Of a stretch of DNA of 64,000 nucleotides, positions 2,190-35,120 are shown one piece after another. The notes under the pieces were generated by a model. It saw only the letters and a list, made by a program, of their open reading frames with translations. It searched no databases and was not told where the DNA came from. This DNA is from Psammoneis japonica (Eukaryota). The translations under genes were made by a program, and so were the position numbers. Position 1 is the first letter of the stretch. Every line of letters begins with the position of its first letter. The stretch covers positions 1-64,000 of the forward strand of contig QPGO01000221.1 of NCBI GenBank assembly GCA_008632985.1, written 5' to 3'.

Positions 2190-3168
2190 ACCACCTTTTA
2201 CTATGAGCAGTGAGCAGTACCTTTTGTTCGGTACGGTCGCTCCGCTACGTCATTTATTCCGTCTAAGTGTTATCCAAGAGTTGCAAGCCTGTACCCGTCA
2301 TGATTATGGGAGCTCTCATGGGAAAGAAATATCCGCTCAAGAAATATATCAAGGTCGTCATGATTGTAGGTGGTGTGGCGCTCTTTATGGGAGGGTGAGT
2401 GTGTATAGTATGGAACAAACAAATACCTATCGTCGTCACGCCATTGTTGTTATAGCTGTCTTCTTACACAATCCTCGTTCCATCCATGTATCTTATTCTA
2501 CAATGGCAATTCCAAGTCGAGCAAGAATAGCAGTGCCGATGAAGATGTGGGTGGCGTATCGTCTCAAATGTTTGGTATTCTACTCTTGTTTATCAGTCTC
2601 TGCTATAACGGTGGCACGGGCGCGTACGAGGACAAGCTCATGAGCGTCCACTCGGTGGGACCCTTTGATTTAATGTACAATATTCAATTGGGCAAAACCA
2701 TCTTGGCGGGAGTATCGCTCCTTGTACTCAATCAAGTTCAAGTCCTTTTACAAATGTTTCAAGAAATGGGATTCTTATGGGTGGCACTCTGTTTGAGTGG
2801 TGCACTCGGACAAGTTATCATTTTTGTCACAATCGCCAAATTTGGGGCCCTTACGTGTTCCATAATTGGATTGGCACGCAAGGTTACGACACTGGTGGCG
2901 TCCATTTACTTTTATGGACATTCGCTGAATGGCATTCAATTTACCGGACTCGTCGTGAGTGTGTCTGCCATGGTTCTCAACTTTTTTGGAAAAAAGAGGG
3001 AGGTGGCGGAAATCATCAATAAGCACCACCGCCACCCGAGGATTAAGAAATGGAACAGCTTCTTCCGAATGAACCGAATACTATCATCCTCACGGTGATG
3101 ATGTCGAACTAGGACCGTTGGCCGAGAGTGGAAAAGAAAACTTGCACAATGCTTCTCTCGTAGCATAG
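2190..3168 (+). pseudogene. UDP-galactose transporter-related (SLC35B1/UAA family) 3' fragment, copy 1, TA-normal, with one intron
   Basis: [35 protein letters not shown] and FGALTCSIIGLARKVTTLVASIYFYGH are SLC35B1-type motifs. GTGAGT donor at 2395. The 5' end is missing and frameshifts are present. Confidence 0.85.
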
Positions 3169-3239
3169 TATACAGATAATAATGGTACTCTAAGCTAGAG
3201 TAATGGTTTGACTATATAGTTCGATACGTAGTATACTAA

Positions 3240-4542
3240 TAGGAACTGCAGGCTATTCACCATGGTTTGTGAATCTTTCTCTAGAGTCATCGACAAGAAC
3301 AGAAATATCACACGTGATTCGACTTGAAACGCTCATTCATGAGGAGCTTATGACACTACTCGTCGGTGCGTTGGCACCTGCGGTTGAGTTCCGCAAACTC
3401 TTCCGCAAACTGCTCCTCGGTGCGTTGGCGCTTCTCTTGGTGCCTACGGTTGAGTTCCGCAAGCAGTTCCGCAAGCTCTTCCGCAAACTGCTCGTCGTTG
3501 CGTTGGTGCTCCTGTTGGCGCCTGCGGATGAGTTCCGCAATCTCTTCCGCAAACTGCGCCTCTTCGCGTTGGCGCCTCTCTTGGTGCCTACGGTTGAGTT
3601 CCGCAATCTCTTCCGCAGACTGCTCCTCAGTGTGTTGGCGCCTCTCTTGGTGCCTACGGTTGAGTTCCGCAATCTCTTCCGCAAACTGCTTGTCGTTGCG
3701 TTGGTGCTCCTGTTGGCGCCTGCGGTTGAGTTCCGCAAACTCTTTCGCAGACTTTTCATGGTCCCGTTTAGATTTCTCGAAAGACATGACAGCCTGATTG
3801 TCTTGTTCTTGAGTGTACATCTTCGCAGAACGAGTTGGGGCTTGTCCGGCAGTCATCTTGGCGGCGGGACTGGACGTGGCAGAAGGAGTCTGCAGGGTCG
3901 GGCATTTGCTGTGCCTTTTGAGGAACTCTTCACGCTCCTCTTTTTGCGGGCGAATGAATTTCCAAAGTAATTCCAAAAGCTTGCCATTGGGTCCAGCGAA
4001 TCGCCCCACGAGGAACATCCTAAACGTTTTTCGATTTACAGACTTCGCAGCTGGGTCATGAATGACATGTTCTTGCCTCAACTTGTCCACCAAAGGCTGT
4101 AAATCATTTGGGTCTTGAACCACGTGAAAGCAATTGCCGCCTTGCATGAGGACTGGAGGAGAGTCCTTGGTGGTTTGCAGTTTCCAACCGTTGGCTTTGA
4201 AGCAAAAGTTTGGCTTGCCGCACAACTCAAACTTGCACTCGTTTTTGCTTGGCGCTTCGATTGCTCTATCCATGACGTCTGGGGTGAGGATCTTGAAGTT
4301 TCGGCAAAGATGCTCTCCCCGATCCTGGTTTGGCACGTCCTCGTCAGGAAAGATGGCGGTGAAAGAATGCTGTTCCACAAAAACAAACAATGCGACACGA
4401 GCAATGATGAGCAAAAGATGGACGCACTGGTGCGCGTAGAAAAGATGCTGAGTTCAACCATCTCACCTTTCCTTCCTCGGCAGCACTTGGTGATTCGGTT
4501 TCAACCACAGCACCAACAGAACGCGGCGAATCGTTGTTGAAC
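3240..4542 (-). pseudogene. Family-X gene copy 1, 3' part (separated from its 5' part at 10431-10756 by insertions)
   Basis: SFTAIFPDEDVPNQDRGE...VVQDPNDL is collinear with the intact copy at 33486-35120. Homology stops at 4542 and resumes at 5770-5777 and 10431. Confidence 0.85.
3360..3760 (-). repeat. Coding tandem repeat of about 60 bp units (coiled-coil EEQFAEEIAELNRRHQERRQ)
   Basis: About six copies of 'cggttgagttccgcaa.ctcttccgcaaactgc' are visible on the plus strand. Confidence 0.9.
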
Positions 4543-5769
4543 AGGCATCCTTGCGGTGCGTGTCTGATGTTTTCCAACCCACCAGTTCACACTTGTGCCA
4601 GTCCGGGAAACCGTCATGTTGATGCACGAAGTGGATTTCCGCATCGCTGTGAAACCTGCAGGCGGCGACGGCGGCGTTCACACCGGTTCCGCATCGCTTC
4701 CAGTCGCGGTGCCGCCACATGCCTGCAACTCTTTTTTTGTGGGAACCTCGTTTGCCTGTAAACCGTTGCTCAATCAGAGCTGTCATTGGACGTGCGACCG
4801 ATTCGTTTGGGTTGCCGGGGCCGTGAGTTTCGTCACAGTGAATGTCCGCGTGGCGTGCAAGTCGGAGCTGATCGCCTCGCATCATGGTCTGGCTGCAGCT
4901 GGTCCATGACACTGCCAAGTTCTTCCAAGCAGCAGATTGAATGACACAACTCAATGTCTTGTCCTCAGCAACACGAGACAGAGCATCCGCAGGCAGCTTG
5001 TCATGAGCTGATGCAAACGCAGTGAGCAAATTTTGGGTGCATCGCTCCTTGTGTGCCACCAGAGCGACGTCAACTGCCTCTGATCTCACAACGAATTTTG
5101 GATTGGGAGGTTTGTGCTCCTCCCAAGATGAGTGATGCTGCAGTGACCAAATGACACGCTTGGCCGACTTCGGCGTGACGTCTCGTTTCGACACTGCCTC
5201 CAAGAAGTGCCGGTCGACCTGGTCTCGCGTCAAGCAAGGCGGCCCCGACAGAGCCGGCGATTCATCCACCCACCTTTTGCACGCATTCCACTCAGTGACG
5301 TGGGTGCCATCCACCTTGGGTGGTGTGATGGTTTGGGCCAACAAGTCTCCTGTGGAGACCTGAGACGCCATCTTGGGTCTGTTCTGCTCATTGTGATGGC
5401 CTCGAGGGATCGTCTTTTGGGGTGCACCCACCCCACTGTCAAAAGAAAAGAGGTTTTTGAAATCAAACGCTCACTTGTGGCGTTCGACAAGTGGAGTCGT
5501 TTCGAATCATGTTGACATTCGAGTGGGAAGAAAGAACATTTCGACAAGTGGATTTTGTGTCTTGTCCTGTTCTGAAGGTTCTTATCTTCACTGACCACAG
5601 GCCCATCCGGGGTCCGGGAACCGGTTCCGGGGGTGGTTCCGGCGCCGGCCTCCTACGGGCAGGAACCACTGAGGACTCCCCCCGGTTAGCGCTGTCAACC
5701 CGTGACGTCAGGGGGAAGCGCGCCCCCCAATCAGCGGTGGTTGTTCCTGTCAACCGGTGTCGCGCGACC
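4543..5769 (-). mobile_element. Crypton-like tyrosine-recombinase transposon fragment, 3'-truncated
   Basis: ORF 4463-5431 has MMRGDQLR, GKRG, GMWRHRDWKRCGTG..A...RF and FPDW, typical of Crypton/Ndc10-type YR. The sequence is absent from the empty site at about 34891-34910. GC-rich palindromic end at about 5600-5769. Confidence 0.7.
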
Positions 5770-5777
5770 GGCTGCTC

Positions 5778-6144
5778 TGCAGCAGCGACTGTTGTGTGCA
5801 CATTTATGATTGCACATTATTTGCATGTCAATCGCACCACAGTCGTGGATGCGTACAAAGGACAGAACGATCACACAGAGTTGATCGGATGTCGAGAATT
5901 GCAAATACGATCGATTGACGATGTTGACATCTTGCGTGTCAATGGCAATCGCATCCGGACAATCTGTTGTCACGAACATGTTCTCCGAAAGGCCTTTTGT
6001 CTGTAGAAGCAGTGCAGAAGCTTTGGGCCATTGAGAACTCGTTCGGAGAAAACCAAAAATCACAGAGCAAAATTTAATCTCACAATTTCCACTTTTCGCA
6101 CACTGTTCTACTTTCGTTTACACTCGTTCTTCGAGCACAGTGCA
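5778..6144 (+). repeat. 5' LTR
   Basis: Direct repeat of 10063-10430. Starts TGCAGCA and ends CAGTGCA. Confidence 0.95.
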
Positions 6145-9100
6145 TTGTGTAGAACGAATCGCATCAGTTCTGCTGGAATCGATTTCCGAGCGGAAGAAGC
6201 TCAAGCCGAGCAGTGCCTCAAGATGGAACGCTGTTTTTCGTCTGCCAGACAAGAGGATTCGCTTTAATGCGGTCTGTTCCAAGCACCCAAGGATCAAGGG
6301 CTCTACAAGTGCACCGCATTGTCAAAAAATCTACACCGATTCATGGTTGCAGAGAATGCAAGTCCCGAGTCGATGTGGTCCGAGAAATGTGTCTGCCAAG
6401 CAAGGAGAGACTGTTGGAGAGTTTTTGGAGACCGAATTAACGAGCCTCGAGTCCAAGAGCAAGATGGAACCGTTGGAAAGTACCTCAAGAGTCTCATGTC
6501 TCATGTCTTTCCAAGAATTGCACTTCAGAATCAAAATCATTGTTTTCAAGACGATCTGAAGAAACCAGAGCTGCTTGACAGCAAGAAAGCCTCTGTCAGA
6601 CCCAAGAGGTCAATGATGAGAGTCCATGCGACCCTCAGATGGATTCTAAGTCGAATCTAGCGGGAAACCGAGCGCTGATTTGTCAGCTGTCACTCGCACC
6701 GCAAGGATGGCAGCATCAGTCTGCTGTCCAAAACAATCAACTGTTGCAACTCATCCTTGATGAACTGACCAAGTTTTGAGTCATCTAAAGGTCGTTCATG
6801 ACGTCCGTGACAAAAAAACATGTCAACTCAGGCTCTGATGGCGCAGTTGGTTCCAAAATAAAAAAGGTTCCAAATTTGGTTCCAAAAATGGTCTCCTGTG
6901 TGGTGCCAGAACAATCCAAAGTGAATGCAAGGTCTCATCTTTGAAAAAAGAACACCCACATCACGGATTGAAGCCATTCTAAAAATGAACTAGCAAAAGA
7001 GTGCAAGGGTGACTCTGAAAGAGACCCAAAAATGCGCCGTTCAAATGGCAATCGCACGCGGTCGCGTCGCGACAACGAAAATGCCGCTCGCAAAAAAAGA
7101 GATGAACGTCATGATTGATCAGGCGGTTCAAAAAATGCTCAAAGCGAGTTCCTTGAACAAAGAAAAAGAGCATGAGGGCAAAGAATCAGATTCTGATGCC
7201 CTCAGTGAAGAAAAACACCAATTTGATCGGATGATCCAGACTGAATCCGAAGAACAATTTTGGTCTGTTCACGAATTGTGTGCTTTGCTGGACATTAGGA
7301 AGCCTAGAAAAAAGGCAGAAATAATTCACACTAGTCCAGGAGTCATCATTTATATGAATACTTCCTTGGGAAAGGAGAGAAAAAAAAGCATCTACGTGTT
7401 CCTATCGACAACGGAACATCGTCAACCATAATTTTGCGCAAATTCGTGCGAAAGTTGAGAACACAAGAATCCGCCACCAAAAACTTGGGAAACCAAGGGT
7501 GAGCTCTTTACGACTGATAGTAAACACCGAATTCAGTTCTCACTATGCGAAATTTAAGGAATACTGATATTCAAACAGGATATGTTGAAAACACCAAATT
7601 TTCTTCAGGTTCAAATGATGTGATCATGGGACGCGACTTAATGTCCAGTCCTGCAAGTCATATTGGACTACGCAAATGAAGAAATCTAATGGGAAGAAGC
7701 AATTACCTTATGAAGAATGTTCATACACTCTTCGATGCCGATGTTTTCAAGCTGAAAACCGATCACATTGAAAAATATGACGCCGTGAATAGAGTTAATA
7801 ACGGAACCAATGGTCCTCGACTCACATTATCACGCCATCGATCTTAATCAAGTGACAACTACGGCGATGCATCTAACCCAAATGAACACAACCAACTCAA
7901 TCTTCTTCTTAAGAGGTTGAAATCGTTTTGGAAAGTTCCTCAGACGAATGTATGGGAAGCATCAGTGGATCTCATCGTGGAAAATCTGACGCGATTCCAC
8001 GACGCGTGAGAACCTTCTCCTATCATAGTCTTTGGAGGCGTCCAATCAAAAGGAGTTTGACCTATTATGAAAGATTGAAGTCTTAAGAATGAAATTACTC
8101 TGAATAAGTCGCTCTGAGACTCATTGTCTAAAGAAAACAGGTCGAGTTCGACCGTATCCGACACTCAGAAGCTTAGTAAAAGGTTCATACACGTAGTGTA
8201 TCCTTTACCCAATATTCAGGAAATACTATTGAAGCAAGAACGTTTCATATATGTAATCTATTTGATTCAAATATGGAATGCCACCATGTCAAATAAAAAA
8301 AGCACACGTCGTGCTCACACGAAAATCATGCCGTAGGGAGAAAATGAGTACTATAGACTTCCAATGAGAATCTATAGAGCCCCAGATATTTTTAAACAAC
8401 ACATGAGTGAACTCATAACAGGTTTGAAGTTGTCAGAACGACTGTATATGATCGTTTATACCTGACAAAAGGTGACTTCAAAATATCACCTGTACAAGTG
8501 ACAGCTTAATACGGCATTCAAACGACTAGAACAGTCGCTTAGAAGGTTAACAACAAAAGTCCTTCACTATTCAACTTGAAATAAACTATCAAGACTTCCA
8601 TACGTAACGATATGCAATCGATTACAAAGAAAATGGAGGCGATTCAAGCAATCGCAACACGAGAAAAACGTAAAGAACACTACGACATCTCGTTGTCATA
8701 CGTTACTATTATCGAGACATGTAGTCTCAACGATCTCCTGTACAATACTAGCCAAATTCACCTCAATAAAGGTCAAACGGCAAAAGTACAAGTACGGAAC
8801 GAAAAGTCTCCGAAAATATGGAGCGTATCAAATCAAAAACTATATTGTTATCATACACGTATTTCAATATTATACGTTACAACGGAAAAAAGAACTTCTG
8901 TCCATAGTGAAAACACTTAAAAAATTCCGAAATATACTGTTTGGCCAACAGATTTATACATACACGGATCATAAGACACAACGGACAAAGTCATACGTTG
9001 ACAACTTCAGTCCCGAATTAGAATACAACGAGGGCAAGGCGAACATCGTCGCGATAGACGCGATCAGCCGACTTACTATAGAAAATTGAATCCTACGACA

Positions 9101-10062
9101 ATGTTCTACCGTTAAAACGGGTTAAAGACATTCCCTCCAAATTGTCGGACGCGACATGTCATACGAACACTTTTCGTGGAGGCGAGCGAGATCGAAAAAT
9201 GCTCATGTCACAAGGATAAAATCGCCTTTTTAAAGGACGATTTAGGAAAAAACAGTGACAGATTGGCACACATTATACGCATCCACTTCACACTGGCAAA
9301 AGACAATCTCACAACACCCGTACGGTTGTATTGTACAATGCACGAGGCAAGACATTAAAATGTGCATCATGTCGACACACGAGATGTGCCAAAGATCTAG
9401 AAAAAGAAAAGAAAAATGGACATTTGTCCACTCAGTGCACGAAACCAGTGCCTTTGGAATGACAAAATGGCGCCAGCATGTCAGAAAGAAACGTCCAAAC
9501 AACGATTAAAATCCAACTGACAGATGGTTGAAGTGCAAAAAAAAAAAATCCACAATGGAACTCACAACCATCACAGGATTGATCATCAAGACGAAATGGT
9601 CACAATGTCTTTGACCATCGTTTGTTGTCACTTGTGAAACGTGGCAGTGCAGCAGAGCAACATGGCACACAAAGTGAGCCCGCCAAACTACATGAAATCC
9701 ACAAGCAAGTGAGTGAATGCCACAATTGAGAGCGTGCATTAAGTGCTGGGCACGATGCTGTGTGCAATCGATGTCAGGAAAAACACTTGCTCCAGGACAA
9801 CCCAGTCCTTGTGTTCATGTCAACAAGAACGTCAATGAGAACACTCGACGCAATGCTGTGTGCACACACATCAAGTGAGAAACAAACAATGTCACTCTCA
9901 AAAGACATTCGGAAATTGGAACAGCCCTGCATTGCCCATGCAAAACAACAACAGTCATTGCCAATGGCACAATGCAGTGAAAGTGGAGACATTGTTGACA
10001 CTGTCGATGTCCGTCGAATGATCCACTTGCAAATGACTCCAATGTGCAATTAGGGAGGCGAA

Positions 10063-10430
10063 TGCAGCATGCGACTGTCACACACATGTTTGTGATCATG
10101 TGTTGTTTGTGTGTCAATCGCGCCACAGTCGTGGATGCGTGCAAAGGACAGAACGATCACACAGAGTTGATCGGATGTCGAGAATTGCAAATGCGATCGA
10201 TTGACGATGTTGACATCTTGCGTGTCAGTGGCAATCGCATCCGGACAATCTGTTGTCACGAACACATTCTCCGAAAGGCCTTTTGTCTGTAGAAGCAGTG
10301 CAGAAGCTTTGGGCCATTGAGAGCTCGTTCGGAGAAAACCAAAAATCACAGAGCAAAATTTAATCTCACAATTTCCACTTTTCGCACACTGTTCTACTTT
10401 CGTTTGCACTCGTTCTTCGAGCACAGTGCA
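10063..10430 (+). repeat. 3' LTR
   Basis: Direct repeat of 5778-6144, preceded by a polypurine tract and followed by the TSD GCTC. Confidence 0.95.
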
Positions 10431-10756
10431 GCTCTACGCCAGCGAAATGAGGGGAAGCGAACTCATCCTTGGTGTCATTCGAACGCAGAGATGCAAGCTC
10501 GTCAGCGGTGTTGTTTGAACGCGGAGAGAAAAACACGCGCGCAAAATTTTCTGGGTTAAAAAATCTCACCTTTCTTTCCTCGGGTTCTGTTCGAACGCAG
10601 AGATGCAAGCTCGTCGGCGGTGTTGTTGGAACGCGGTGAGAACAACTCGTCGCCGGAAGAGTGCGGCGATCGCAATCCCTCCGAGTCGCTCCTGTCGTTG
10701 TCATTGTCGTTGGCTCCGCCAGCCACTGCGGAGAGAGCGCCTTTGGAGAAGTTCAT
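10431..10756 (-). pseudogene. Family-X gene copy 1, 5' part
   Basis: MNFSKGALSAVAGGANDNDNDRSDSEGLRSP matches the start of the 33486-35120 ORF. It contains an internal duplication of the ADELASLRSN segment. Confidence 0.85.
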
Positions 10757-10879
10757 CGTGAGAATGGCATCAATGCAATGTCAAATGCTCAATGCTGTTG
10801 AGTCGGGTTGAGTTGTGACGGTTGTGATGCGAGTGCTTTTGCGACGCGCTGCGATTTCAGATTCGAGTTGTGATTCACT

Positions 10880-11060
10880 CCGCAGAGCCTGCGTGGCTTG
10901 ATGTGCCACAGTGTTGGTTCTTCGCAGAAGTCTGGCATGTTTCCACCCAACGGATCTTTTTCGAATTTACAGCAGCGCGTGCGCGCGCATGCGCGTCTTT
11001 CAAATTCCGCGTCCCGCTAAAAACATCGCACGCGACGTCATCATTTCATCGGCCTGTCTG
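10880..11060 (-). promoter_or_regulatory. Family-X upstream module, copy 1 (TA-converted, E2F-like site altered)
   Basis: Homologous to 20770-20960, 35230-35402 and inverted 49700-49890. It lies upstream of the ATG at 10756. Confidence 0.6.
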
Positions 11061-11949
11061 CATGACATGTGGTGAATTGTGGACTTTGAAGCTTGTTGCT
11101 GTGCTGCCGGCAGTCTAATCACAGAAAGCCCTTCCAAATTCACTCAAATGTTAAGACCACCCTTGGCAGACTGGCCGTCAATCAAGATGAGTGCCCATTG
11201 ACAAATCACCCGATGACGGCAGTGCAGCAGAAGCACACGCAGGGCCCATGCAGCAGCAGACCTCTGCTCTGGTCAGGGGGCTGACAGCCACACTCACCAG
11301 AGTCAACGAATGAATGACAATGCTTCCTTCACCTCTGGCGGAAACCTTTTGAATCATGCATGAGGTCCCCATTCGCATGACCCCACTTTCTCTGCTCCAA
11401 ACCAGCTCACAATTTTCACAACGACAAAGTCGCAACACATCTTCTTTTTCAGCGCCTGGTGCGTGCACAGGGCACAACATTGTCAATCAAATGATGGTTT
11501 TTCTGGCTCATCGCCAACGAATGAACTTTGTCTCAAAGCGAGTTTTCCCCAACAAACCACCCAACTCACATTCATGGGAATGCAGCAACTGGCGACAAAA
11601 CACCTTGTGTCCCTCCTGGGTGATGCTTCTGCTGCCAGTCATCACTGACGTCGATCGCGTCTGCACGTGGCTGGATGTGAGAAACTGCTGGATGGCTGGT
11701 GTGCATGTTTGTGCGGCACATGCGCAGTTCCGCACTTGCCATGCCGCCGGCCTGTGCCGCACTGCCGACCAACCAAATGTCTCCTCCCAGGCAGATGGAC
11801 CGGCGACCAACCGCGCCGCGTGCAAACCTCCTCAAGACCGTCTGTCCGCACCCTCGGCCCATCTTTTTTCCACACCGGCCTCGGGCACAAAAATTGAGAA
11901 AAGCGCGGTCACCATGGTGCGGTTGTTGCTGTTGCGGCTGTTGCTCTCT

Positions 11950-13490
11950 CATCGGAACAAGCGGTTTGGCCCCTTGCTGTCGCTCCCATTCCTTCTCCAT
12001 CCTCCACTCAATGGATCTCACCCCACCCCCAACAAGCGCAACTGCTTCAACCTCGCATTCGTCAACTCCAGAGCCCCATGCATCGCCGTCAGATGTTCCA
12101 ATTGCTGCACAGACCACCATGGCGATGAAGGAGCCAGCACTTGTTGTCATCGAAATCTTTGACACCGACATTTGGATCGGTCGTCACCAAGGTGACTGTG
12201 ACCACAATGGAGACTGTGAATCTGGTTCACGCAGTTACAAACGTGACAGATCCTTCATGTTCTGACCTTGGTGCGTGGAACAGAGATTGTTGCTGTGACC
12301 CGTGCTGTGTTCCTCCACCAACCCCGCTTTGTCCACATCCGGAACTAAACTTCTTGTACAGTGATCCACCAAATGGTGAAAAGCAGGGGCTGTGCAGCGG
12401 AGACTGTGACAGGGACAACCAGCGAGAGCCTGGATTGGCATGCTTCACACGTGACAGCTTTGACCCGGATCCATGCTGGTCTGGACCAGGACAGTGGATC
12501 AAAGATTGCTGCCACAACGCGTCTGAAACACTGAACCCCAGTGCATCTGTGAGTGCGTCCGGCCCAACCGGCAGCCCGACGTCACCTCCAGCCACTGCAA
12601 ACCCCACAGGACAGCCGCCACAATGTCGCCACAGACTCAATCAAGGACGGCTCCTTGCGCTTTACTTCCAGTGCTCACTTTCTTTGCTCAGGACCTGCCA
12701 CGCAGATCATTCATCCTCCTCCCCTTCAAACGCTCCCTCCGACAACAGCAATTTTGACTGTGTCGTCGTTGCCACCCACAATGCAGCCTCCCACTTCAAG
12801 CCCAACCGAGGCAAACACCTTGTCACCGACGGCACACAACATCAGTGCACCCGACATTCAAGTTCTTTCGTTTGTCGCAGAACATGCGCTCTTGAGAAAT
12901 TGGTGTGGGATTGATGCAACCGAGACTGTGAGCCCGGGTTGCGCTGTTTCAAATGAGACGGTTTCGTGAAACGCACGTAATTTCTTTGCGCTGCGAATGC
13001 TCTGCATTGTGAGATTCATCTCATGTCGCTTCTTTGTTCAGCTCCAGGTTGCTCTGGCAATGGGGAAGAAGAACAAGGACTGTTGCTTTGATCCTTTGAC
13101 ACTGGTTCTGGCGCCGCCAATGGAACTAGCGCCACCCCTGATTCACCTTCGCCTTCGCCAACTCGCTGTCACATGTTCGCTCTGCCATTGACCAACATGG
13201 GGACAAAGGAGTTGACACTGGTTGCAATCAATGTCTTTGACATCGATGCTCGGCTCGGTCGTTGTCAAGGTGATTGTGACCGCAAACAAGACTGCAAACA
13301 TGTTCCAAGACTGGAGTCAGTGGGGCCCCAGCAATCAGTTGTCAGGAGTGCGTCATGAACGGGCAATTTGTTGGGCATTGAGCTCTGATGCGCATTGTCA
13401 AGAAAGACCGGTGTGCTTTGAGCGCGTGGGATTTCAAAAAGCACCTGGATGTGTCGTGGCCGTGGGTCAAGGGGGGCAGCTGCTGCACAT
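11950..13490 (+). pseudogene. Frustulin-like (acidic cysteine-rich domain) cell-wall protein remnant
   Basis: Repeated GRHQGDCD, GLCSGDCD and GRCQGDCD, plus GL.CF.RD and PGC.G.G..DCC motifs separated by Pro/Thr/Ser linkers. Many frameshifts. Confidence 0.8.
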
Positions 13491-14550
13491 CCGGTGGACG
13501 CAAGTTGCACGAATTGTGTGTTTTTGTTTGTGACTTTGTCGCTGCACACCACGACGCTGCGGCAGGACGCCCACCCCCATTTTGCCGGTGCTGTTTGCCA
13601 TTTTGGGACTCACCTCCATGGGCAGCACATTTTTTTCGTTGTGGTCGCTCCGTTGTGTCATCAATCCCAATCAACTGCTGGCCAAGAGTTGCAAGCCGGT
13701 GCACGGCATGATTGTGGGGGGCTCTCATGGGAAGAAACACCCGCTCAAGAAATGTGTCAATGTCATCATGATTGCAGGTGGTGTGGCGCTCTTTGTGGGA
13801 GGGTGAGTGTGTGTGGTGTGGAACAAACAACCACCTGTCGTCGGCTCCGTTTTGTTGTTGTTACAGATGTTTTCTAACACAACCCTCGTTTCAACCATGT
13901 GTCCATGTGTGCAGTGGAGACTCAAGTCGAGCAAAAAGAGCAGTGCCAATGAAGATGTTGGCGGCGTGTCATCTCAAATGTTTGGCATTCTGCTCTTGTT
14001 TGTCAGTCTCGGCTTTGACAGTGGCACGGGCGCGCATTGTACGAGGACAAGCTCATGAGCGTCCATTCAGTGGGACCCTTTGATTGAATGTACATTGTTC
14101 AATCGGGCAAAACCATCTTGGCGGGAGTGTCACTCCTTGCACTCAATCAAGTTCATGTCTTTTTGCAAATGTGTCAAGACATGTGATTCTTGTTGGGGGC
14201 ACTCGGTTTGAGTGGTGCACTCGGACAAGTTGTCATTTTTGTCACAATTGCCAAATTTGGGGCCCTTGCGTTGCGACACTGGTGGCGTGCATTTGCTTTT
14301 CTGGACATTCTCTGAATGGCATCCAATTTACCGGACTCGTCGTGAGTGCATCTGCCGTGGTTCTCAACTTTTTCGGAGAAAAAGGGAGGCGGTGGACATC
14401 AACCACAAGCAACACCGCACCTGAGGATTAAGAAATGGAACAGATTCTTCCGGATGAACCGAGTGCTGTCATCCTCACGGTGATGATGTCGAACTAGGAC
14501 CGCTTGCCGAGAGTGGAAAAGAAAACAAGCACAATGCTTCTCTCGTAGCG
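13490..14550 (+). pseudogene. SLC35B1-like fragment, copy 2, heavily TA-converted
   Basis: LAKSCKPV...GKKHPLKKCVNV, collinear with 2190-3168 and 18790-19870 including the intron. Confidence 0.85.
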
Positions 14551-14964
14551 TGGCACAGACAACAATGTGGTGCTTTGAGCCAGAGCAATGGTTTGACCAT
14601 AATTTGACATGCAGCACACTGGTGGGAACTGTGGGATGTTCATCATGGTTTGTGAATCGTTGTCTCTCTCTAGAGCAGAAACAACAAGAGAAGACATGGC
14701 ACTCACAGTCAGTGGAACTGGCGCTGGTGGCAAGAATCTGCCGAAGCAAAGGGTGCGTTGAACTCGTTCGACGTGAATTCAGACGACGGATGATTCGACT
14801 TGAAACGCTTGGGCGTGGGTGCATTCACCAGGAAATCAAGACACTGCTCATTGGCACGCTTGCGCTCGCGGAAGTGCTCATCCATGAGTTTTATCTCTTG
14901 GTCTTGTTTTCGTTCCTGAGTCTTCAACAACTCTCCAATCTCCTTGTGTGCTTCTGGAGTGAAC

Positions 14965-15352
14965 GTCCTTGCAAAACGAGAAGGGGCTTGTCTGGGAGTC
15001 ATGTGGCGGCGGGACTGTCTTGGTGACGGATGGCAGTTGGTTGCGTGAAGAGAGCGCCCGACTCATCACGAGCCACAACAGCCTGATTGCATTGTTCTTG
15101 AATGCACGTCTTCGCAGAACGAGCAGGAGCTTGTCCGGGAGTCATCATGGCGGCGGGACTGTCTTGGTGACGGATGGGAGTTGGTTGCGTGAAGAAAGCG
15201 CCCGACTCATCACGAGCCATGACAGCCTGATTGCACTGTTCTTGAATGCACGTCTTCGCAAAACGAGTGGGAGCTTGTCCGGGAGTCGTCATGGCGGCGG
15301 GACTGTCTTGGCAAAGGATGGGAGTTGGTTGCATGAAGAGAGCGCCCGACTT
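14965..15352 (-). repeat. About 123-bp (41 aa) tandem repeat, three copies
   Basis: ARDESGALFTQPTPIRHQDSPAAMMTPGQAP..AKTCIQEQCNQAV recurs, and 'ggcggcgggactgtcttgg' appears at about 15005, 15150 and 15293. Confidence 0.85.
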
Positions 15353-15632
15353 GTGACGGGCCTCTTCCTGAGGAGGCAAGCCACATCTGGCTTCCTTGGA
15401 TTCCTGCTCATTGAGTGACTTGAGCAACATTTCCTTCTCCTGTTGCTTTTTTTCGAGTTCTTTCTGCTTCCTTTTCTGGCAATGCCTGCGGTTTGCTTCG
15501 CTTTTCTTGAGCTTTCTCTCCTCCTCCTCCGCACTCTTCTTCTCCTCGGCTTCTTTCTTCTCTCGTTTCTTCTTGTCTTGATGCCTCTGCGCTATCTTGC
15601 GGTTTTGTTCCCTCTTCCTTTCCAACTTGGTT

Positions 15633-15657
15633 GCAGCAGCAGCAGCAGCAGCAGCAG
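15633..15657. repeat. (GCA)n microsatellite encoding poly-Ala on the minus strand
   Basis: gcagcagcagcagcagcagcagca seen directly. Confidence 0.9.
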
Positions 15658-17076
15658 TGGCGGTGGCGGCGGCGTTGCACACCGGCGGTTCATTGCCAAA
15701 GGCAGCCAATTGACGAGCTGTGGAGAGGATGGATGACTCCATTGCAGGGCGTGGCTCTATCATCTTCGCATGGACACCCTGCTGTCCATAAAAACAAACA
15801 ATCCGACACGAGCAATGATGAGCGAGAACAAAAGAGAGTGCGAGTGGAACAAGCAGGTGTTTTTCAAGTGTCGACCATCTTGCCTTTTTGCAATCTTCGT
15901 CCGCACCCCTTGGTGACATGATTTCCACTTCGGCACCATTGTTCGAACGCGGAGATGCAAGCTCGTCGGCGGGGTCGCAGTCACCGAGATCACAGCATAA
16001 ATCACCTCTCAAGAACACTCCTTTCACTGGATGCAGGCCATGACATTCACCGTTCAGGAAGGATTCTAGAAGTTGCTTGTCGTTGACATCATCGTCCGTG
16101 TCAAGAATGCGAAAAACGAACAGGACGTCATTCTCATTTAGATTCACGCTGGGTGCTAGCATGAACTTCACATTGCGGTCAATCAGTCTCTCGTTGCGAT
16201 GTGCCGGCAAGTCCTCCAAGTTTTCCAACGCAACCAGTGTTTTAATTCATCCTTGGTGTTCCTCCAATGTAGTTTTGGCATCACGCCATTCGATTCCCAT
16301 GTCTCCAAACGAGTGAGAACAAACGGAAGGTTCCTTGTTGTCCGTGCTGACAATCTCCGTGAGAGTGTTTTCAAGACGATGGGTTCCTGCAACCACAATC
16401 AAATCCAAAGAAGGCAATCGGTCTCCTTTCATGGGCCCTTCCAATGCTTTTACGTGACTTCCCACAAGATAAATGGAGCATTCGGCATCGACGTCCAACA
16501 AGCCTTTCACGATAGAGGAAACGAACAGTTTCGAGTTTTCAATCGTTTTCAATCGTCCTTCGGCTTCTCCAAACTGCAATGTGTCACTCTCGTCAAACAG
16601 CTCAGTGCGCTCTAGATTGTCGATCTTACGGACACGCTGCTGTCCCTCGCTTGCGGCTTGCGGGCGTCTTCTTTCCATCGTGATAACAGCGGCGGCGATG
16701 ATGTTTGCCGTTTTCTGAAAAACTGAAATCGGAAGAAAATGTGGCCGGAATAAACCAACGGTGTTATTGCGAACCCCGACGACGTCAGCCGAATTTATGA
16801 ACGGCACGGCACGAGCTCCGAACTCGCCATTGCTTTTTGTCCATCGACACTTTCAACTTTCACGTTCGTCATTCGTCACAAAAAAAGACACACCGCCATG
16901 GCGTCAAAGACGTAGTGCTCTACCACTCCGTAACTATACATAACGATCTGATACCCGACACTTGGTAGTATCATCAAGCACTTTTCGTTGTACTTATTCA
17001 CATTTTTCCCGTTCGAAATGAGTGGCCGTGGAAGGCAAAAAAGGCACTCTCTAACATATCGTCACGAAATCTTCGG

Positions 17077-17442: not shown

Positions 17443-17702
17443 ACCTTCTCTGAAGAGGGAGACGGTAATCAAAAGCTTCTTTTTAAGCTGGCAAAGCGTC
17501 TTCACTCGATTCTGATTAGAAACGACTCTAGCGCTGCACGGAGATGTGACCCGACAGCGCATCTACCGAGCGAACGCTTGCAGAGCTTGCAAAGTCAGAC
17601 GACAGTTTTCTATGGTTGTGCTCTGTCTCTCTTCTGGAAGAACAAGAAAAGAAGTAGAGAAAGAAAAGGGATTGGAATTGGAGGACAGCCGGCAATGGAA
17701 CC

Positions 17703-18168
17703 GTAAGTGTATATAGTATGGAACAAACAACTACCTATCGTCGTCACGCCGTTGTCGTTATAGCTGTTTTCTAACACAACCCTCGTTCCAACCATGTTTG
17801 TATTCTTTAGTGGAGACTCCAAGCCGAGCAAAAAGAGCAGTACCGACGAAGATATCGGTGGCGTATAGTCTCAAATGTTTGGTATTCTGCTCTTGTTTAT
17901 CAGTCTCTGCTTTGAGGGCGGCACGGGCGCGTACGAGGACAAGCTCATGAGCGTCCATTCGGTGGGACCCTTTGATTTAATGTACAATATTCAATTGGGC
18001 AAAACTATCTTGGCGGGAGTATCGCTCCTTGTACTCAATCAAGTTCACGTCTTTTTACAAATGTGTCAAGAAATGTGATTCTTATTGGGGGCACTCGGTT
18101 TGAGTGGTGCACTCGGACAAGTTTTTATTTTTGTCACAATCGCCAAATTTGGGCCCCTTAAGTGTTCC
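17703..18168 (+). pseudogene. SLC35B1-like fragment, copy 3 (intron plus middle exon part)
   Basis: MFGILLLFISLCFEGGTGAYEDKLMSVHSVGPFDLMYNIQLGK. Begins at the intron donor and ends in a fusion to frustulin sequence. Confidence 0.85.
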
Positions 18169-18790
18169 AACATCAGTGCACCCGATCTTCAAGTTCTTAC
18201 GTTTGTCGCAGAACAATGAGCCCGGGTTGCGCTGTTTCAAACGAGACGGTTTCGTGAAACGTACGTATTTTCTTTGCGCAACGAATGCTTTGTATTATAA
18301 GATTCGTCTCATATCGCTTCTTTGTTCAGTTCCAGGTTGCTCTGGTAATGGGGAAGAAGAACAAGGACTATTGCTTTGATCCTTTGACACTAGTTCTGGC
18401 GCCGCCAATGGAACTAGCGCCACCCCTAAAAAACGCAGCAGTTTCACCTTCGCCTTCGCCAACTCGCTGTCACATATTCGCTCTGCTATTAACCAACATG
18501 GGGATAAAGGAGTTGACACTGGTTGCAATCAATGTCTTTGACATCGATGCTCGGCTCGGTCGTTGTCAAGGTGATTGTGACCGCAAACGAGACTGCGAAC
18601 ATGTTCCAAGACTGGAGTCAGTAGGGCCCTAGCAATCAGTTGTCAGGAGTGCGTCATAAACGGGCAATGTATTGGGCATGGAGCATCGAATGCGCATTGT
18701 CAAGAAAGACTGGTGTGCTTTGAGCGCATAGGATTTCAAAAAGTACCTGGATGTGTCGTGGCCGTGGGTCAAGGGGGGTAGCTACTGCAC
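18169..18790 (+). pseudogene. Frustulin-like fragment, TA-normal paralog of about 12840-13490
   Basis: EPGLRCFKRDG, VPGCSGNG, KDYCFDP, LGRCQGDCD. Collinear with 12840-13490. Confidence 0.8.
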
Positions 18791-19870
18791 ATCGGGTGGA
18801 CGCAAGTTGCACGAATTATATGTTTTTGTTTGTGACTTTGTCGCTGTACACCACGACGCTGCGGCAGAACGCCCACCCCCATTTCACCGGCGCTGTTTGC
18901 TATTTTGGGACTCACCTCCATGGGCAGTACATTTTGTTTGGTACGGTCGCTCCGTTATGTCATCAACTATTGGCCAAGAGTTGCAAGCCGGTACACGGCA
19001 TGATTATGGGGGCTCTTATGGGAAGAAAAACCCGCTCAAGAAATATATCAATGTCGTCATGGTTGTTGGTGGTCTGGCGCTCTTTATGGGAGGGTGAGTG
19101 TGTATAGTATGGAACAAACAACTATCTATCGTCGTGATGTCGTTGTTGTTATAGCTGTCTTTTAACACAACCCTCGTTCCATCCATGTATTTATTCTACT
19201 ATGGCGATTCCAAGTCGAGCAAAAAGAGCAGTGCCGATGAAGATGTTGGCGGCGTATCGTCTTAAATGTTTGGTATTCTACTCTTGTTTATCAGTCTCGG
19301 CTTTGACGGTGGCACGGGCGCGTATTATACGAGGACAAGCTCATGAGCGTCCATTCGGTGGGACCCTTTGATTTATGGTACAATATCCAATTGGGCAAAA
19401 CCATCTTGGCGGGAGTATCACTCCTTGTACTCAATCAAGTTCACGTCCTTTTACAACTGTGTCAAGAAATGGGCTTTCTATTGGTGGAACTCGGTTTGAG
19501 AGGTGCACTCGGACAAGTTTTTATTTTTGTCACAATTGCCAAATTTGGGGCCCTTACGTGTTCCATAATTGATGGATTGGCACGCAAGGTTTCGACACTA
19601 GTGGCGTCCATTTACTTTTATGAACATGGGGTCCAATTTACCGGACTCGTCGTGAGTGTATTTGCCATGGTTCTCAACTTTTTTGGAAAAAAGAGGGAGG
19701 TGGCGGAAATCATCAATAAGCACCACCGCCACCCGAGGATTAAGAAATGGAACAGCTTCTTCCGAATGTACCGAATACTATCATCCTCACGGTGATGATG
19801 TCGAACTAGGACCGCTTGCCGAGAGTGGAAAAGAAAACTTGCACAATGCTTCTCTCGTAGCAAAGTATAG
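18790..19870 (+). pseudogene. SLC35B1-like fragment, copy 4, TA-normal
   Basis: LAKSCKPVHGMIMG, PLKKYINV, FGALTCSII..LARKVSTLVASIYFY. Same intron as the other copies. Frameshifts and stops. Confidence 0.85.
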
Positions 19871-19899
19871 ATAATAATGGTGCTCTTAGCTAGAGTAAA

Positions 19900-20755
19900 G
19901 GCTTGACTATAATTTGATATGTATTATACTAATAGGAACTGTGGGATTCAAGTTGACTGTCTGTGATTCTTGACGCAACAGATCTGCCTGCTGTACCAAA
20001 ATCAATGGTACTTCAAAGCCAGTGATCAACCTCGTACACTTGCTTTTTCAATTGACTGACTTTGCCGAAGTGGAGGTTGCGTTGAACTCACTCGACTTAT
20101 TTTCGGATGGGTGGTTCGACTTGAAACGCTCGTTGGGCGTTGGCATGATTCTCGCGTTCATCAGGAACTCAAGTAGCTGCTCCTCATCACGTTGGCAATT
20201 GCGGTTGTGTTCCTCAAGCGCTCGGCGAGACGAACACAACTGTTGCTCATGCTGTTGCATCACATGCCCATGCTGTTGCATCATTTGCTGATACCTTTTA
20301 AAAATGACGGTCGCCCTGTCATCCTCAAACTCTCGACGAGACGAATGCAACGCTTGCTGATGCTGGTACAAAGCTTGCCCATGCTTTTGCATCATGTGCC
20401 CATGCTGTTGCATCATTTGCTGATGCCTTTCAAAAATGACGGTCGCCCTGTCATTTTCCCGTTTCTTGCTCTTCAACAACTCTCCAATTTCCTTGTATGC
20501 TTCTGGAGTGAACATCCTTGCAAAGGGAGAAGGGGCTTGTCCGGGAGTCATCATGGCGGCGGGACTGTCTTGGTGACGGATGGGAGTTGGTTGCGTGAAG
20601 AGGGGGCTCGACTCATCCGTTGGAACGTCCTCGTCAGGAAAGATGGCGGTGAGAGAACACTGTCCATAAGAACAAACAATGCGACACGAGTGATGATGAG
20701 CGAGAAGATGGACGTACGCGCACAAAAGTCACTGGGTTAAAAAATCTCACCTTTG
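19900..20755 (-). pseudogene. Family-X copy 3, internally deleted, with a duplicated Gln/His-rich segment
   Basis: SLTAIFPDEDVP joins directly to QDSPAAMMTPGQAP. DRATVIF...QQMMQQHGH occurs twice. Confidence 0.7.
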
Positions 20756-20769
20756 CTTTTGACTCGATT

Positions 20770-20960
20770 TTTGATGCATTCCGTAGAACCTGCGTGACTT
20801 TATGTGCCACAAAGTGGATTCTCCGTAGAATCAGGCATTGTTTCTACACGCCCAACGGATCTTTTTCGAATTCGGCGCGTGCGCGCGTGCGCGCGTTTTT
20901 CAAATTCCTGTCCCGCCAAAAACATCTCACGCGATGTCATCATTTCATCGGCCTGTCTGT
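20770..20960 (-). promoter_or_regulatory. Family-X upstream module, copy 2
   Basis: ttcaaa (20899-20904) and tcccgccaaa (20911-20920), an alternating GC tract, and homology to three other copies. Confidence 0.6.
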
Positions 20961-21600
20961 GGTGCTGACTTGTCTTTTATGAATTTTGGAATTTGCCTTC
21001 TTTGCATGCAGCACATTCCACCACGAGAAGGCAGGCTTCACTCGGAACCACTGAGGCACGCAGCCAGCTCACAGGTGGACCCAGGCACTCCCCCACACCC
21101 CACACTCCAGCGCTGCTGCCACAAAACAGGGAGCAAGAGCACCCAGCTCTGCTGGTGTGAGCTCAGCGCAAATTGTTCCTCATCTTTGCTGGCACACAGC
21201 ACACCTTCTTGACTTCATCAGCACCTCATGTGGCAGCAGCAGTCTGGTCTGTTGCTGCATCACAAGACACATCTGATGCACCCAAGGCACCTCAAGCAAG
21301 AACACATCAAAAAGTGACCCACAGCACCAGCAACTTGCTGACAAGATCCCCAAAAGGGGTTGGTGTTGCAGCTGCTCAATGGAGCTTGTCAACCACATCA
21401 GCCCTTTGCAAATGTGCTGAAATGTCAAGCTGATTAAAAACAAACAATGAGCCACCCCCCCCTCTTGGCAGCCGAGTGAGAGTCATTGTTGGCTGCTGCT
21501 CCAAAAGGGGTGTTTGACAAGCTCCAGGCTGAAAAAAGTTGTCGGCTGCAACAAAGCTGACCAGTGCTGCTCAAAAAACAGGAGCAAGTGGCTCCCCATG
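20770..21600. repeat. Long inverted repeat arm, partner at about 49020-49910
   Basis: 'tcatcagcacctcatgtggcagcagc' (about 21215) reappears as 'gctgctgccacatgaggtgctgatga' (about 49379). The ORFs SSAPHVAAAVWS.. match on opposite strands. Confidence 0.9.
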
Positions 21601-33485: not shown

Positions 33486-35120
33486 TTACTCGGCATCGTT
33501 GAGAGCGCCATTGAATATCTCCAAATGGTAGCCTCTCTTTGAGAGCTCTGTGCCATCGCTCGTCCGCACCATGTAAGAGTCATGCCCTGTCCTACGAACT
33601 ATCTCCACCACCTCATTCATTGCTTGTCCACGGGTTACACGATATTTGTCACCTGCGTTGAACATCTTTCGCGCATTGTTGCGGCTGCGGGAGCCACGGA
33701 CAGCTGTCGCAGGGACAGCATTTGGTGTGGCAGTAGTGGTGGCATTGTTGTGTCCGCGGGAGCCACGGACAGCTTGCATGGGTGCTACTTTCAAAGCTTC
33801 AATGGTTGCCTTGTATTCTTCCTTTCGCATCATGAGTTCTTCGTCACGTCGCTTTGCTTCTTCTTTTCGCATCTGGAGGTCTTCCTTTTTAAGCTTGACT
33901 CTTTCAGCAAGAATGGTAGCGATACGATCAAAGGAAGTCGTTACGTTGGCATTCGATCCCGATTGGTCCAACATGTGCTTTTGGAAGATTCTGGCAAGCT
34001 CTGGCGACGAACAGGCATCGTCAGAATTGCCCTGCAGGACAGCACCAAAAGGAGGACGAAATACAATGCTTGAGACAAATGGGATCTTTCCTCTTGGCAA
34101 TTTGAAGGAACGCGTAATACTCACCTCCGCTACGGTTTCCGGGGGCAGCCTTGGCAGACTACTCACAACAGCAGTTTCATCCTTGAAAGTGTCCTCGCCG
34201 GGGTTGATGGACTTGAGAGTAGGACGAGGTGAGGACTGGTTCTTGCTATACTTCTTGAGAAACTCTTCACGCTCCTCTTCTTGCAGGAGAATGAATTTTT
34301 CCCAAAGAAACCCCACAAGCTTGCCATTGGATGCAGCGACTTTCTTCGCGAGGTGAGCCACAAACTTTTTTCGATTTTTAGACTTCGCACGTCGGTCATG
34401 AAGGACATATTCTAGCCTCAACTTGTCAACAACAGGCCCCAAATCGTTTGGATCTTGAACCACTAGAAAGCGCTTGCCGACATCGTTTTCACATTTGTCG
34501 CCATGGAACATGAGGACCGGTGGAGAGTCCTTGGGAGTATGTAGTTTCCAACCGTTGGTTTTGAAGTAAAAGTCCTTGCCGTACAACTTGAACATTTTTT
34601 CGTTTTCGCTTAGCGCTTCGATTGCTTTATCCATGACGTCTTGGGTGAGGATCTTGAAGTTTCGGTAAAGATACTCTCCCCGATCCTGGTTTGGCACGTC
34701 CTCGTCAGGAAAGATGGCGGTGAAAGAACACTGTCCATAAAAACAAACAATGCGATACAAGTAATGATGAGCAAAAGATGGACGTACTGGTACGCGTAGA
34801 AAAGATACTGAGTTCAACCATCTCACCTTTCTTTCCTCGGTAGCACTTGGTGATTCGGTTTCAACCACAGCACCAACAGAACGCGGCGAATCGTTGTTGA
34901 ACGGCTGCTCTACGCCAGCGAAATGAGGGGAAGCGAACTCATCCTCGGTATTATTCGAACGCAGAGATGCAAGCTCGTCGGCGGTGTTGTTTGAACGCGG
35001 AGAGAAAAACTCGTCGCCGGAAGAATGCGGCGATCGCAATCCCTCCGAGTCGCTCCCGTCGTTGTTCTTATCGTTGGCTCCGCCAGTCACTGCGGAGAGA
35101 GCGCCTTTGGAGAAGTTCAT
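33486..35120 (-). CDS. Family-X protein, intact copy: acidic/Ser-Pro N-terminus, globular middle, coiled coil, C-terminal KOW/SH3-like domain. Two predicted introns (34731-34826 and 34032-34124)
   Basis: 544-codon ORF with normal Tyr content. GTGAGA...ACAG and GTGAGT...GCAG introns. C-terminus FNAGDKYRVTRGQAMNEVVEIV...YMVRTSDG. Confidence 0.8.
   Translation of the reverse strand: MNFSKGALSAVTGGANDKNNDGSDSEGLRSPHSSGDEFFSPRSNNTADELASLRSNNTEDEFASPHFAGVEQPFNNDSPRSVGAVVETESPSATEERKVRWLNSVSFLRVPVRPSFAHHYLYRIVCFYGQCSFTAIFPDEDVPNQDRGEYLYRNFKILTQDVMDKAIEALSENEKMFKLYGKDFYFKTNGWKLHTPKDSPPVLMFHGDKCENDVGKRFLVVQDPNDLGPVVDKLRLEYVLHDRRAKSKNRKKFVAHLAKKVAASNGKLVGFLWEKFILLQEEEREEFLKKYSKNQSSPRPTLKSINPGEDTFKDETAVVSSLPRLPPETVAEVSITRSFKLPRGKIPFVSSIVFRPPFGAVLQGNSDDACSSPELARIFQKHMLDQSGSNANVTTSFDRIATILAERVKLKKEDLQMRKEEAKRRDEELMMRKEEYKATIEALKVAPMQAVRGSRGHNNATTTATPNAVPATAVRGSRSRNNARKMFNAGDKYRVTRGQAMNEVVEIVRRTGHDSYMVRTSDGTELSKRGYHLEIFNGALNDAE

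Follow-up and report, generated by a model that had tools for sequence, protein, structure and literature searches.

The LTR pair of a Gypsy-like retrotransposon in Psammoneis japonica suggests TpA-specific hypermutation of integrated DNA

How did the two LTRs of one retrotransposon, located in the 64-kb stretch of Psammoneis japonica DNA analysed here (the window), come to read TG in one copy and CA in the other at the same sites, and on which form of the element did the changes arise? An important property of an LTR pair is that it serves as a built-in control: the copies are identical at the start, so each difference between them post-dates integration. The initial annotation of this DNA had proposed that the discordant sites were formerly TA rather than CG, that the process acts on chromosomal DNA and not on the RNA intermediate, and that it runs far above background.

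LTR1, the 5' LTR (5778..6144, + strand, 367 nt), has TG...CA ends and contains 8 TA (TA o/e 0.28, CG o/e 1.16), and LTR2, the 3' LTR (10063..10430, +, 368 nt), contains 3 TA (TA o/e 0.12, CG o/e 1.10). Between them lies a degenerate internal region (6145..10062, +) with abundant stops and frameshifts. A purine-rich tract read directly from the sequence, the putative polypurine tract (10052..10062, +), abuts LTR2 upstream and sets the orientation of the element to +. Because the 4-bp target-site duplication GCTC is found on both flanks (5774..5777 on the left, 10431..10434 on the right, both unstranded), whereas the paralogous empty site (34903..34914, +), in which the flanks of the element are contiguous, has one GCTC (34907-34910), the LTR pair is the product of a single insertion. 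The joined, empty-site form is also present in one contig from the sequencing run. Its homologies mark the element as a degenerate Ty3/Gypsy-like retrotransposon. Alignments to distant Gypsy polyproteins cover RT (8121-8564), RNase H (8603-9086) and, from 9985, a C-terminal piece; over the stretch ~9100-9985, the same comparison gave no detectable match, integrase included. RT_RNaseH was the sole Pfam match among 30 pieces of the element (E 4e-6). Proteins found by homology to the RNase H piece were all remote Gypsy members (44-51% identity, with 37-40% of the query covered), which are too distant to polarise codon changes. No tRNA primer-binding site was recognised downstream of 6144 on reading the sequence, and Rfam gave no match.

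The dinucleotide strings quoted for both LTRs in the initial annotation are present in the sequence where it had placed them, and 341 of 367 positions are the same in the two LTRs. Alignment and classing of the differences, the check proposed there, gave 26 substitutions, all of them transitions (0 transversions), and one extra T in LTR2 at 10070; under purine/pyrimidine recoding, the LTRs are 100% identical over 360 nt. Eighteen of these substitutions pair up as nine adjacent dinucleotides that read TG in one LTR but CA in its partner; LTR1 has five TG and four CA, and both outcomes occur in each LTR. Eight of the nine dinucleotides, together with two of five TA/TG sites, fall in a 33-nt patch near the LTR's 5' end (5793..5825, +; LTR2 counterpart 10079-10111). 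The ninth is isolated (5979..5980, +; LTR2 counterpart 10265-10266) and has, within 5-8 nt on either side, CpGs that both LTRs have kept. At the remaining eight substitutions, LTR1 always has A where LTR2 has G; they comprise five TA/TG (5806, 5819, 5855, 5907, 6120), two AA/AG (5942, 6037) and one CA/CG (5836). Outside the patch, there are 10 differences in 334 nt, i.e., the LTRs are 97% identical. The substitutions form 13 adjacencies, a number that was never reached when 26 substitutions were placed at random over 367 positions 100,000 times. The probability that 26 of 26 substitutions are transitions is about 9e-6 at a transition share of 580/906, which is the sum over 13 other paralog alignments of the window that overlap and are not independent.

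The fates of CpG and TA in the LTRs differ: of 22 CpG positions, 21 persist in both copies and one is changed, whereas five of the eight visible TA sites are discordant and three are shared and intact. This comparison favors TA over CG as the ancestral state, as the initial annotation had argued. As a historical ratio, the pair records at least 23 conversions among 34 visible TA site-copies versus 3 other changes among about 666 base-copies; TA rewriting would outpace ordinary substitution by approximately two orders of magnitude, in line with the proposal of a process far above background. One-sided conversions are unevenly distributed, with 0 sites in LTR1 only and 5 in LTR2 only, in addition to 9 double hits. 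A homogeneous independent-hit model does not fit these numbers, and, therefore, a hot patch must be assumed whichever ancestor, TA or CG, is considered.

The family is highly repeated, with a summed contig depth of about 8,000-29,000 on the element versus about 60 on unique flanks. Other family copies were compared using the contigs listed, which represent a family with more than 100 copies and are possibly chimeric. Three of these contigs have TG or CA in other combinations, and the two TA/TG sites of the patch read CA in other copies, so that all three states (TA, TG and CA) are seen at the same position. Among the same contigs, CG is found once, at the second discordant site in one other copy, and TA is found at none of the seven discordant sites that are visible in other copies. 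Further LTR copies were found neither in the rest of the 64-kb window nor in pattern scans of a metagenome collection and a viral collection (0 in these scans). We strongly infer that the nine TG/CA sites were formerly TA, not CG.

The LTR pair is a local instance of a window-wide mosaic. The whole window has a TA o/e of 0.33 and TG/CA o/e of 1.43-1.45; a 1-kb profile with segmentation delimits eight TA-poor segments, 35.5 kb in total, with TA o/e of 0.02-0.12 and mean TG/CA o/e of 1.34-1.83. The block to the left of the element (3401..5800, unstranded) is TA-poor and CpG-normal (TA o/e 0.12, CG o/e 0.91). Another TA-poor block (9401..16600, unstranded; TA o/e 0.10, CG o/e 0.82) takes in the right edge of the element and LTR2, continues into the flank, and holds a converted paralog, B, described below. 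Two TA-poor blocks (20101-32200 and 41601-49700) are also depleted of CpG (CG o/e 0.23-0.24), and a purine/pyrimidine-recoded self-search of the window found no paralogs of these CpG-poor blocks. Among the 96 ORFs of the window, Pfam matches were limited to a UAA transporter, a sub-threshold CAF1A and a sub-threshold SNF2.

Five paralog pairs, each with one copy in a TA-poor block, were compared. There are 144 TA sites in the normal copies, and 114 of these are TG or CA in the TA-poor copies (60 TG and 54 CA); in the reverse direction, 3 of 469 TG/CA sites read TA. For CpG, 46 of 211 sites appear as TG or CA in the TA-poor copies versus 14 of 469 in reverse; this loss, together with the CG o/e of the two CpG-poor blocks, indicates that a CG > TG/CA route exists in this DNA. 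Paralog B, a UAA-type nucleotide-sugar transporter gene with retained introns (12921..14665, +), was aligned with paralogs A and C. In this alignment, 42 of the 53 TA sites common to A and C are now TG or CA in B, whereas 0 of 114 TG/CA sites read TA in B; in addition, the frame open in A and C is interrupted in B by in-frame stops and a deletion. Since paralogs A, C and D are untouched and only B is converted, the process is not triggered by duplication. Strand-coordinated conversion received no significant support from a runs test (P 0.064 for B alone; P 0.16 over the five pairs). The conversion of a paralog that keeps its introns and the presence of both TG and CA in each LTR argue that the process acts on chromosomal DNA rather than on an RNA intermediate, in agreement with the initial annotation.

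The explanation that we favor, with a probability of roughly 0.75, is that one Ty3/Gypsy-like element inserted in a block under regional TpA-specific A:T > G:C hypermutation, with separate hits in each LTR. The insertion would have occurred at a GCTC target within a hypermutating chromosomal block, and integrated double-stranded DNA would be the target, with each LTR struck separately. A change of the top-strand A would turn TA into TG, and a change of the bottom-strand A would turn it into CA. If both LTRs were struck on opposite strands, the result would be TG versus CA (nine sites), and if LTR2 alone was struck, TA versus TG (five sites); same-strand double hits would leave no visible difference. 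The CpGs in the LTRs would be spared, and change per TA site would exceed the background by approximately two orders of magnitude. As to the chemistry, a DNA-acting deaminase might convert adenine to hypoxanthine, following the hypothesis put forward in the preprint on Bigelowiella natans discussed below, which names an ADAT2-like deaminase as a candidate. The LTR control points to TA rewriting on integrated double-stranded DNA, on both strands, with neighboring CpGs ignored.

TG/CA is the classical product of CpG decay through 5-methylcytosine, which yields TG or CA on either strand and is the default reading of a TG/CA discordance. Applied to this locus, it would mean that the nine sites were CpGs in a methylated, CpG-dense 5' patch, where deamination on either strand produced TG versus CA. 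CpG loss is indeed seen in the window, both in the two CpG-poor blocks and in the 46 of 211 changed CpG sites of the paralogs, and another family copy among the contigs listed has CG at the second site. However, this loss is confined to other blocks, whereas in the LTRs methylation-type decay is not evident: with 21 CpGs intact and one changed, a CpG origin would have to place 16 of 16 hits within 33 nt and next to none elsewhere. The LTR CG o/e is 1.10-1.16, the flanks are CpG-normal, and the pair 5979-80 sits 5-8 nt from CpGs that are intact in both LTRs. Five TA/TG sites and the sites with the three states TA, TG and CA are left unexplained by a CpG origin, which we consider unlikely.

The abundance of the family raises another alternative, namely, that ectopic gene conversion or recombination with a differently converted family copy overwrote one of the LTRs or its 5' patch. 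The high contig depth of the family, the other TG/CA combinations in copies among the contigs listed, and the position of eight of the nine sites within one 33-nt tract are all compatible with such an event. Conversely, both LTRs have the same target-site duplication and are 97% identical outside the patch, the pair 5979-80 and single differences fall outside the tract, and overwriting merely relocates the same TpA process to another copy; we regard it as rather improbable. A further alternative is editing of the intermediate before integration, ADAR-like on RNA or deaminase-driven on single-stranded cDNA, in which each LTR would be fixed from a strand edited in its own way. In retroviruses, minus-strand cDNA deamination between two plus-strand syntheses can in principle make the LTRs differ at integration, and such deamination could give unequal LTRs in this element as well; APOBEC3 and ADAR also leave deaminase-type transition clusters in retroelement copies. 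These enzymes act on RNA or single-stranded cDNA prior to integration and are strand-asymmetric, yet TG and CA outcomes occur in each LTR, and the intron-bearing host paralog and non-element flanks show the same conversion; the window process thus appears to be post-integrational, acts on both strands and extends to non-retrotransposed DNA, and editing of the intermediate is very improbable. The least credible alternative is an assembly or base-calling artefact at modified bases, in which miscalls on the two strands of a modified palindromic dinucleotide could look like TG/CA; no record gives the library type of the runs. Unique TA-poor sequence is, however, matched almost exactly by k-mer contigs of a sequencing run from which the assembly itself may have been built (640 nt with 3 other letters and 568 nt with 2), and in the preprint the same changes were seen de novo in Illumina data.

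In the literature, the only description of TA-specific hypermutation that we found is a preprint on Bigelowiella natans, which reports that integrated viral DNA undergoes de novo hypermutation of TpA to TpG/CpA (bioRxiv 10.64898/2026.01.13.699255); a literature search on methylation in B. natans yielded nothing of use. In that preprint, 231 of 302 de novo mutations fell in two integrated viral regions, 230 of the 231 were A > G or T > C, all 230 on TpA, and the de novo rate was about 1000 times background; in addition, 124 clusters of 1-kb windows were depleted of TpA and showed enrichment of CpA+TpG, Rho was 0.45 for a giant-virus region, and the Discussion cites a preference of ADAR for 5' U (10.64898/2026.01.13.699255). 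The window process would match that of B. natans by signature only: both show strand-dependent change of TpA to TpG or CpA at the DNA level, regional in extent, with TpA-depleted, CpA+TpG-rich clusters and a rate far above background. In the window, A:T > G:C change at TpA giving TG or CA by strand is found both in the five paralog pairs (114/144) and in the LTR pair (five TA/TG sites and nine TG/CA sites of presumed TA ancestry). The targets differ, being viral DNA there and an LTR retrotransposon, non-viral flanks, an intron-bearing host paralog and unannotated DNA here; depletion is deeper here (TA o/e 0.02-0.12 versus Rho 0.45); and two blocks here are also CpG-poor, whereas the preprint text does not mention CpG, LTRs or retrotransposons. 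Integrated viral DNA was not found as a target in the window, where 0 viral Pfam families were detected among the 96 ORFs, although heavy mutation could hide such matches.

Fungal RIP (repeat-induced point mutation) is a C > T process at CpA/TpG in duplicated DNA, which produces TpA. The likeness is in regional, near-saturating, both-strand transitions at one dinucleotide, with degradation of repeats and duplicated genes. The direction and the base are opposite: TA is lost here (114/144), versus 3/469 in the RIP direction, and duplication, to judge from the untouched paralogs A, C and D, is not the trigger. The 3/469 count and the TA o/e of 0.02-0.12 in the affected blocks rule against RIP.

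The process itself is already in print, and the new elements here are the LTR pair, the converted intron-bearing host paralog and the two CpG-poor blocks. These observations provide independent corroboration of the 2026 preprint and widen the scope to retrotransposons and host paralogs; the analysis of all LTR pairs genome-wide would be a route to dating the process and estimating its rate. The block structure, the spared core of the element and the CpG-poor blocks offer handles on targeting, a question that the preprint leaves open. More tentatively, and with a doubtful chance of being correct, the edited unit may be the chromosomal block and not the foreign element as such: host paralogs and flanks would be converted, a new retrotransposon would be entered from both edges for ~1-1.5 kb with a 2.1-kb core spared, and the same or coupled machinery would erase CpG in some blocks, as expected of a deaminase that is guided by heterochromatin and active on both A and C. 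If so, TA and CG, both self-complementary pyrimidine-purine steps, would end as TG/CA in some blocks, in a non-fungal analogue of RIP with the opposite direction at TpA. The core of the element (7301..9400, +) is TA-normal, with TA o/e of 0.75 and CG o/e of 1.27, and the edges on either side of it are TA-poor.

The two long terminal repeats (LTRs) of the retrotransposon at 5778-10430 (LTR1, 5778-6144; LTR2, 10063-10430) match at 341 of 367 aligned positions, with a single 1-nt indel between them. Each of the 26 substitutions is a transition; recoded as purine/pyrimidine, the two repeats show 100% identity across 360 nt. If transitions are taken to be as frequent as in the window's other paralog alignments, 26/26 has a probability of ~9e-6. 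Eighteen of the substitutions fall in nine adjacent dinucleotides at which TG of one LTR is aligned with CA of the other (eight in a 33-nt patch, 5793-5825, and one at 5979-80); in 100,000 random placements of 26 substitutions, the observed number of adjacencies was never reached. At the remaining eight substitutions, LTR1 has A and LTR2 has G (TA/TG five times, AA/AG twice and CA/CG once); 21 CpGs and three TAs are common to both LTRs. The strings quoted in the initial annotation are present in the sequence as stated, and the alignment and classification of differences that it proposed as a check (26 transitions, nine TG/CA pairs, five TA/TG) confirmed its observation. Its interpretation, i.e., that a TATATA-rich ancestor was hit independently in each LTR, is supported. 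The changes arose after integration, on both strands inside each LTR. A process that makes TA is unable to turn identical LTRs into TG versus CA; thus, the LTR pair alone fixes the direction of change.

The element is a single old, degenerate Ty3/Gypsy-like insertion in the + orientation, as follows from the direct repeats of ~367 nt (TG at the start and CA at the end of both copies), the GCTC tetranucleotides on either side (5774-5777 and 10431-10434), the empty site, a purine tract adjoining LTR2 on its upstream side, and a broken RT/RNase H interior. The empty site is a paralogous stretch at 34.9 kb, in which the two flanks are joined with a single GCTC (34907-34910); this joined form is also present in one contig from a public sequencing run. 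The internal 3.9 kb contains many stops and frameshifts. A Pfam RT_RNaseH match lies in 8580-9086 (E 4e-6), and distant Gypsy polyproteins align with RT (8121-8564), RNase H (8603-9086) and a C-terminal piece from 9985, with no alignment to them where integrase is expected (~9100-9985). Copies of the family are numerous (the element has a summed contig depth of ~8,000-29,000, versus ~60 for unique flanking contigs) and vary chiefly by transitions, with 162-205 places per transition type versus 12-37 per transversion type. Adjoining the element on its left, a second insertion of ~1.2 kb (4543-5770, relative to the paralogous site 34902/34903) is TA-free, GC-rich and moderately repeated (depth ~1,000-2,000 versus ~60); its minus strand has an open frame of 335 aa without a Pfam match, and neither terminal repeats nor a target duplication were recognised.

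One of several paralogous duplications inside the window concerns a UAA-type nucleotide-sugar transporter gene, present four times with introns that align throughout. Three of the copies, A (2210-3282), C (18209-19975) and the broken fragment D (17695-18178), lie in TA-normal DNA; copy B (12921-14665), in which the frame open in A and C has in-frame stops and a deletion, lies in TA-poor DNA. At 53 sites that are TA in both A and C, B reads TG at 25, CA at 17, TA at 8 and other dinucleotides at 3; B is the only copy that has lost its TAs (42/53). Conversely, B reads TA at 0 of 114 sites with TG or CA in both A and C, and it retains 30 of their 38 common CpGs. In five paralog pairs within the window, each with one member in a TA-poor block, the TA-poor member reads TG (60) or CA (54) at 114 of 144 TA sites, but TA at only 3 of 469 TG/CA sites; CpG loss was milder yet asymmetric (46/211 sites versus 14/469 in the reverse direction). 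The introns retained in B show that, as had been claimed, the process acts on chromosomal DNA and not on the RNA intermediate. Since D is broken yet TA-normal, while B is broken and converted, conversion is decided by location, not by pseudogene status or duplication.

We estimate the probability that TA was ancestral at most of the nine discordant LTR sites at about 0.8. TG/CA pairs could also derive from CG, and CG does occur once, at the second discordant site, among three contigs of other family copies in the matches listed. However, this CG could come from TA via two hits, because TG/CA to CG occurs at 14/469 sites. The same three contigs, which may be chimeric, show further TG/CA combinations at seven of the nine sites and, at the two patch sites that are TA/TG in the LTR pair, CA; the occurrence of TA, TG and CA at one patch site fits a TA ancestor. 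Both LTRs have kept 21 of the 22 CpG positions unchanged, whereas they disagree at 5 of the 8 TA sites that are visible. A CG ancestor would require hits at 16/16 positions inside the 33-nt patch and ~3/46 outside; the TA model requires 18/20 and 5/14, respectively. On either side of the isolated pair at 5979-80, both LTRs have intact CpGs at a distance of 5-8 nt, and the block flanking the element is of the TA-poor, CpG-normal type. As indirect evidence, the intact CpGs, the hit distribution, the isolated pair and the block type favour TA over CG. A simple model does not fit, since at no site is LTR1 converted while LTR2 remains TA; the intensity of conversion must therefore differ along each LTR and from one LTR to the other. 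LTR2 is wholly within TA-poor DNA, and LTR1 lies at a block edge.

Of 34 TA site-copies in the LTR pair, at least 23 are visibly converted, versus 3 other changes in ~666 base-copies. With saturation allowed for, TA change exceeds other change by roughly two orders of magnitude, in line with the claim of a process far faster than background. An assembly artefact is an unlikely source of TA-poor sequence: contigs of the public run match the unique TA-poor sequence 10789-12000, differing at 3 of 640 nt and at 2 of the 568 nt compared. This agreement is support and not independent proof, as the assembly could itself have been made from that run.

The composition of the window (observed/expected ratios of 0.33 for TA, 1.45 for TG, 1.43 for CA and 0.71 for CG) is a mosaic, not a uniform bias. 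Segmentation yielded eight TA-poor segments totalling 35.5 of 64 kb (TA ratio 0.02-0.12), separated by segments at 0.55-0.81 and a 700-nt stretch (5801-6500) at 0.28. Two TA-poor blocks, 20101-32200 and 41601-49700, are also CpG-poor (CG ratio 0.23 and 0.24, respectively), whereas the others retain CpG (0.57-0.91). These two blocks have a TA ratio of 0.04-0.05, TG/CA ratios of ~1.8 and unchanged GC content, and consist of complex, not low-complexity, sequence; their ORFs have no Pfam match, and no paralogs were found within the window, purine/pyrimidine recoding included. The very unequal ratio of TA loss to CpG loss between blocks argues for two processes with common targets, not one enzyme.

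The TA changes are TA-specific and restricted to blocks. They probably result from A>G change at TpA in repeated rounds, with either strand of double-stranded DNA as the target, for which adenine deamination to hypoxanthine would be the simplest chemistry. In the five pairs, strand runs of conversions were not significant (P 0.16; the longest run, 11, is in B) and no flanking-base preference was obvious. The element sits in a TA-poor, CpG-normal block; its edges are TA-poor (0-5 TA per 250 nt), and its core (7301-9400) is normal (up to 23 per 250 nt, ratio 0.75). The spared core together with the converted host-like flanks suggests that the target is a chromosomal domain, not the element itself. 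RT and RNase H, both in the TA-normal core, are still recognisable, and the integrase region (9100-9985) is no longer so.

The process itself is already published as of 2026: in a full-text search, the sole description of TA-specific hypermutation found was a preprint on Bigelowiella natans (bioRxiv 10.64898/2026.01.13.699255). According to its available text, two integrated viral regions hold 231 of 302 nuclear point mutations in mutation-accumulation lines, 230 of these 231 being A>G or T>C, every one on TpA, at rates of ~6e-7 versus 3.5e-10 elsewhere; 124 clusters of 1-kb windows in the genome show TpA depletion together with CpA+TpG enrichment. Its authors suggest that an ADAT2-like adenine deaminase works on DNA and defends against foreign sequences. 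The excess there is ~three orders of magnitude and measured, compared to roughly two for our LTR pair. The terms CpG, LTR and retrotransposon do not occur in the available preprint text; the present analysis adds the LTR-pair demonstration, a converted host paralog, a gradient within an element, and blocks poor in both TA and CG.

Tandem arrays at 14952-15351 and 3387-3753 are built of units of 144 nt (2.8 copies, 90% matches) and of 66/78 nt, and related pieces recur at 20456-20617. An open frame in TA-normal DNA (61555-62016) has a sub-threshold SNF2-related match (E 2.5e-5; 24.0 bits versus a cut-off of 24.9). A 0.95-kb duplication (40111-41057 versus 63060-64000; 97% identity), both copies of which are TA-normal, has an ordinary spectrum of 13 transitions and 7 transversions, with three TA/TG differences.
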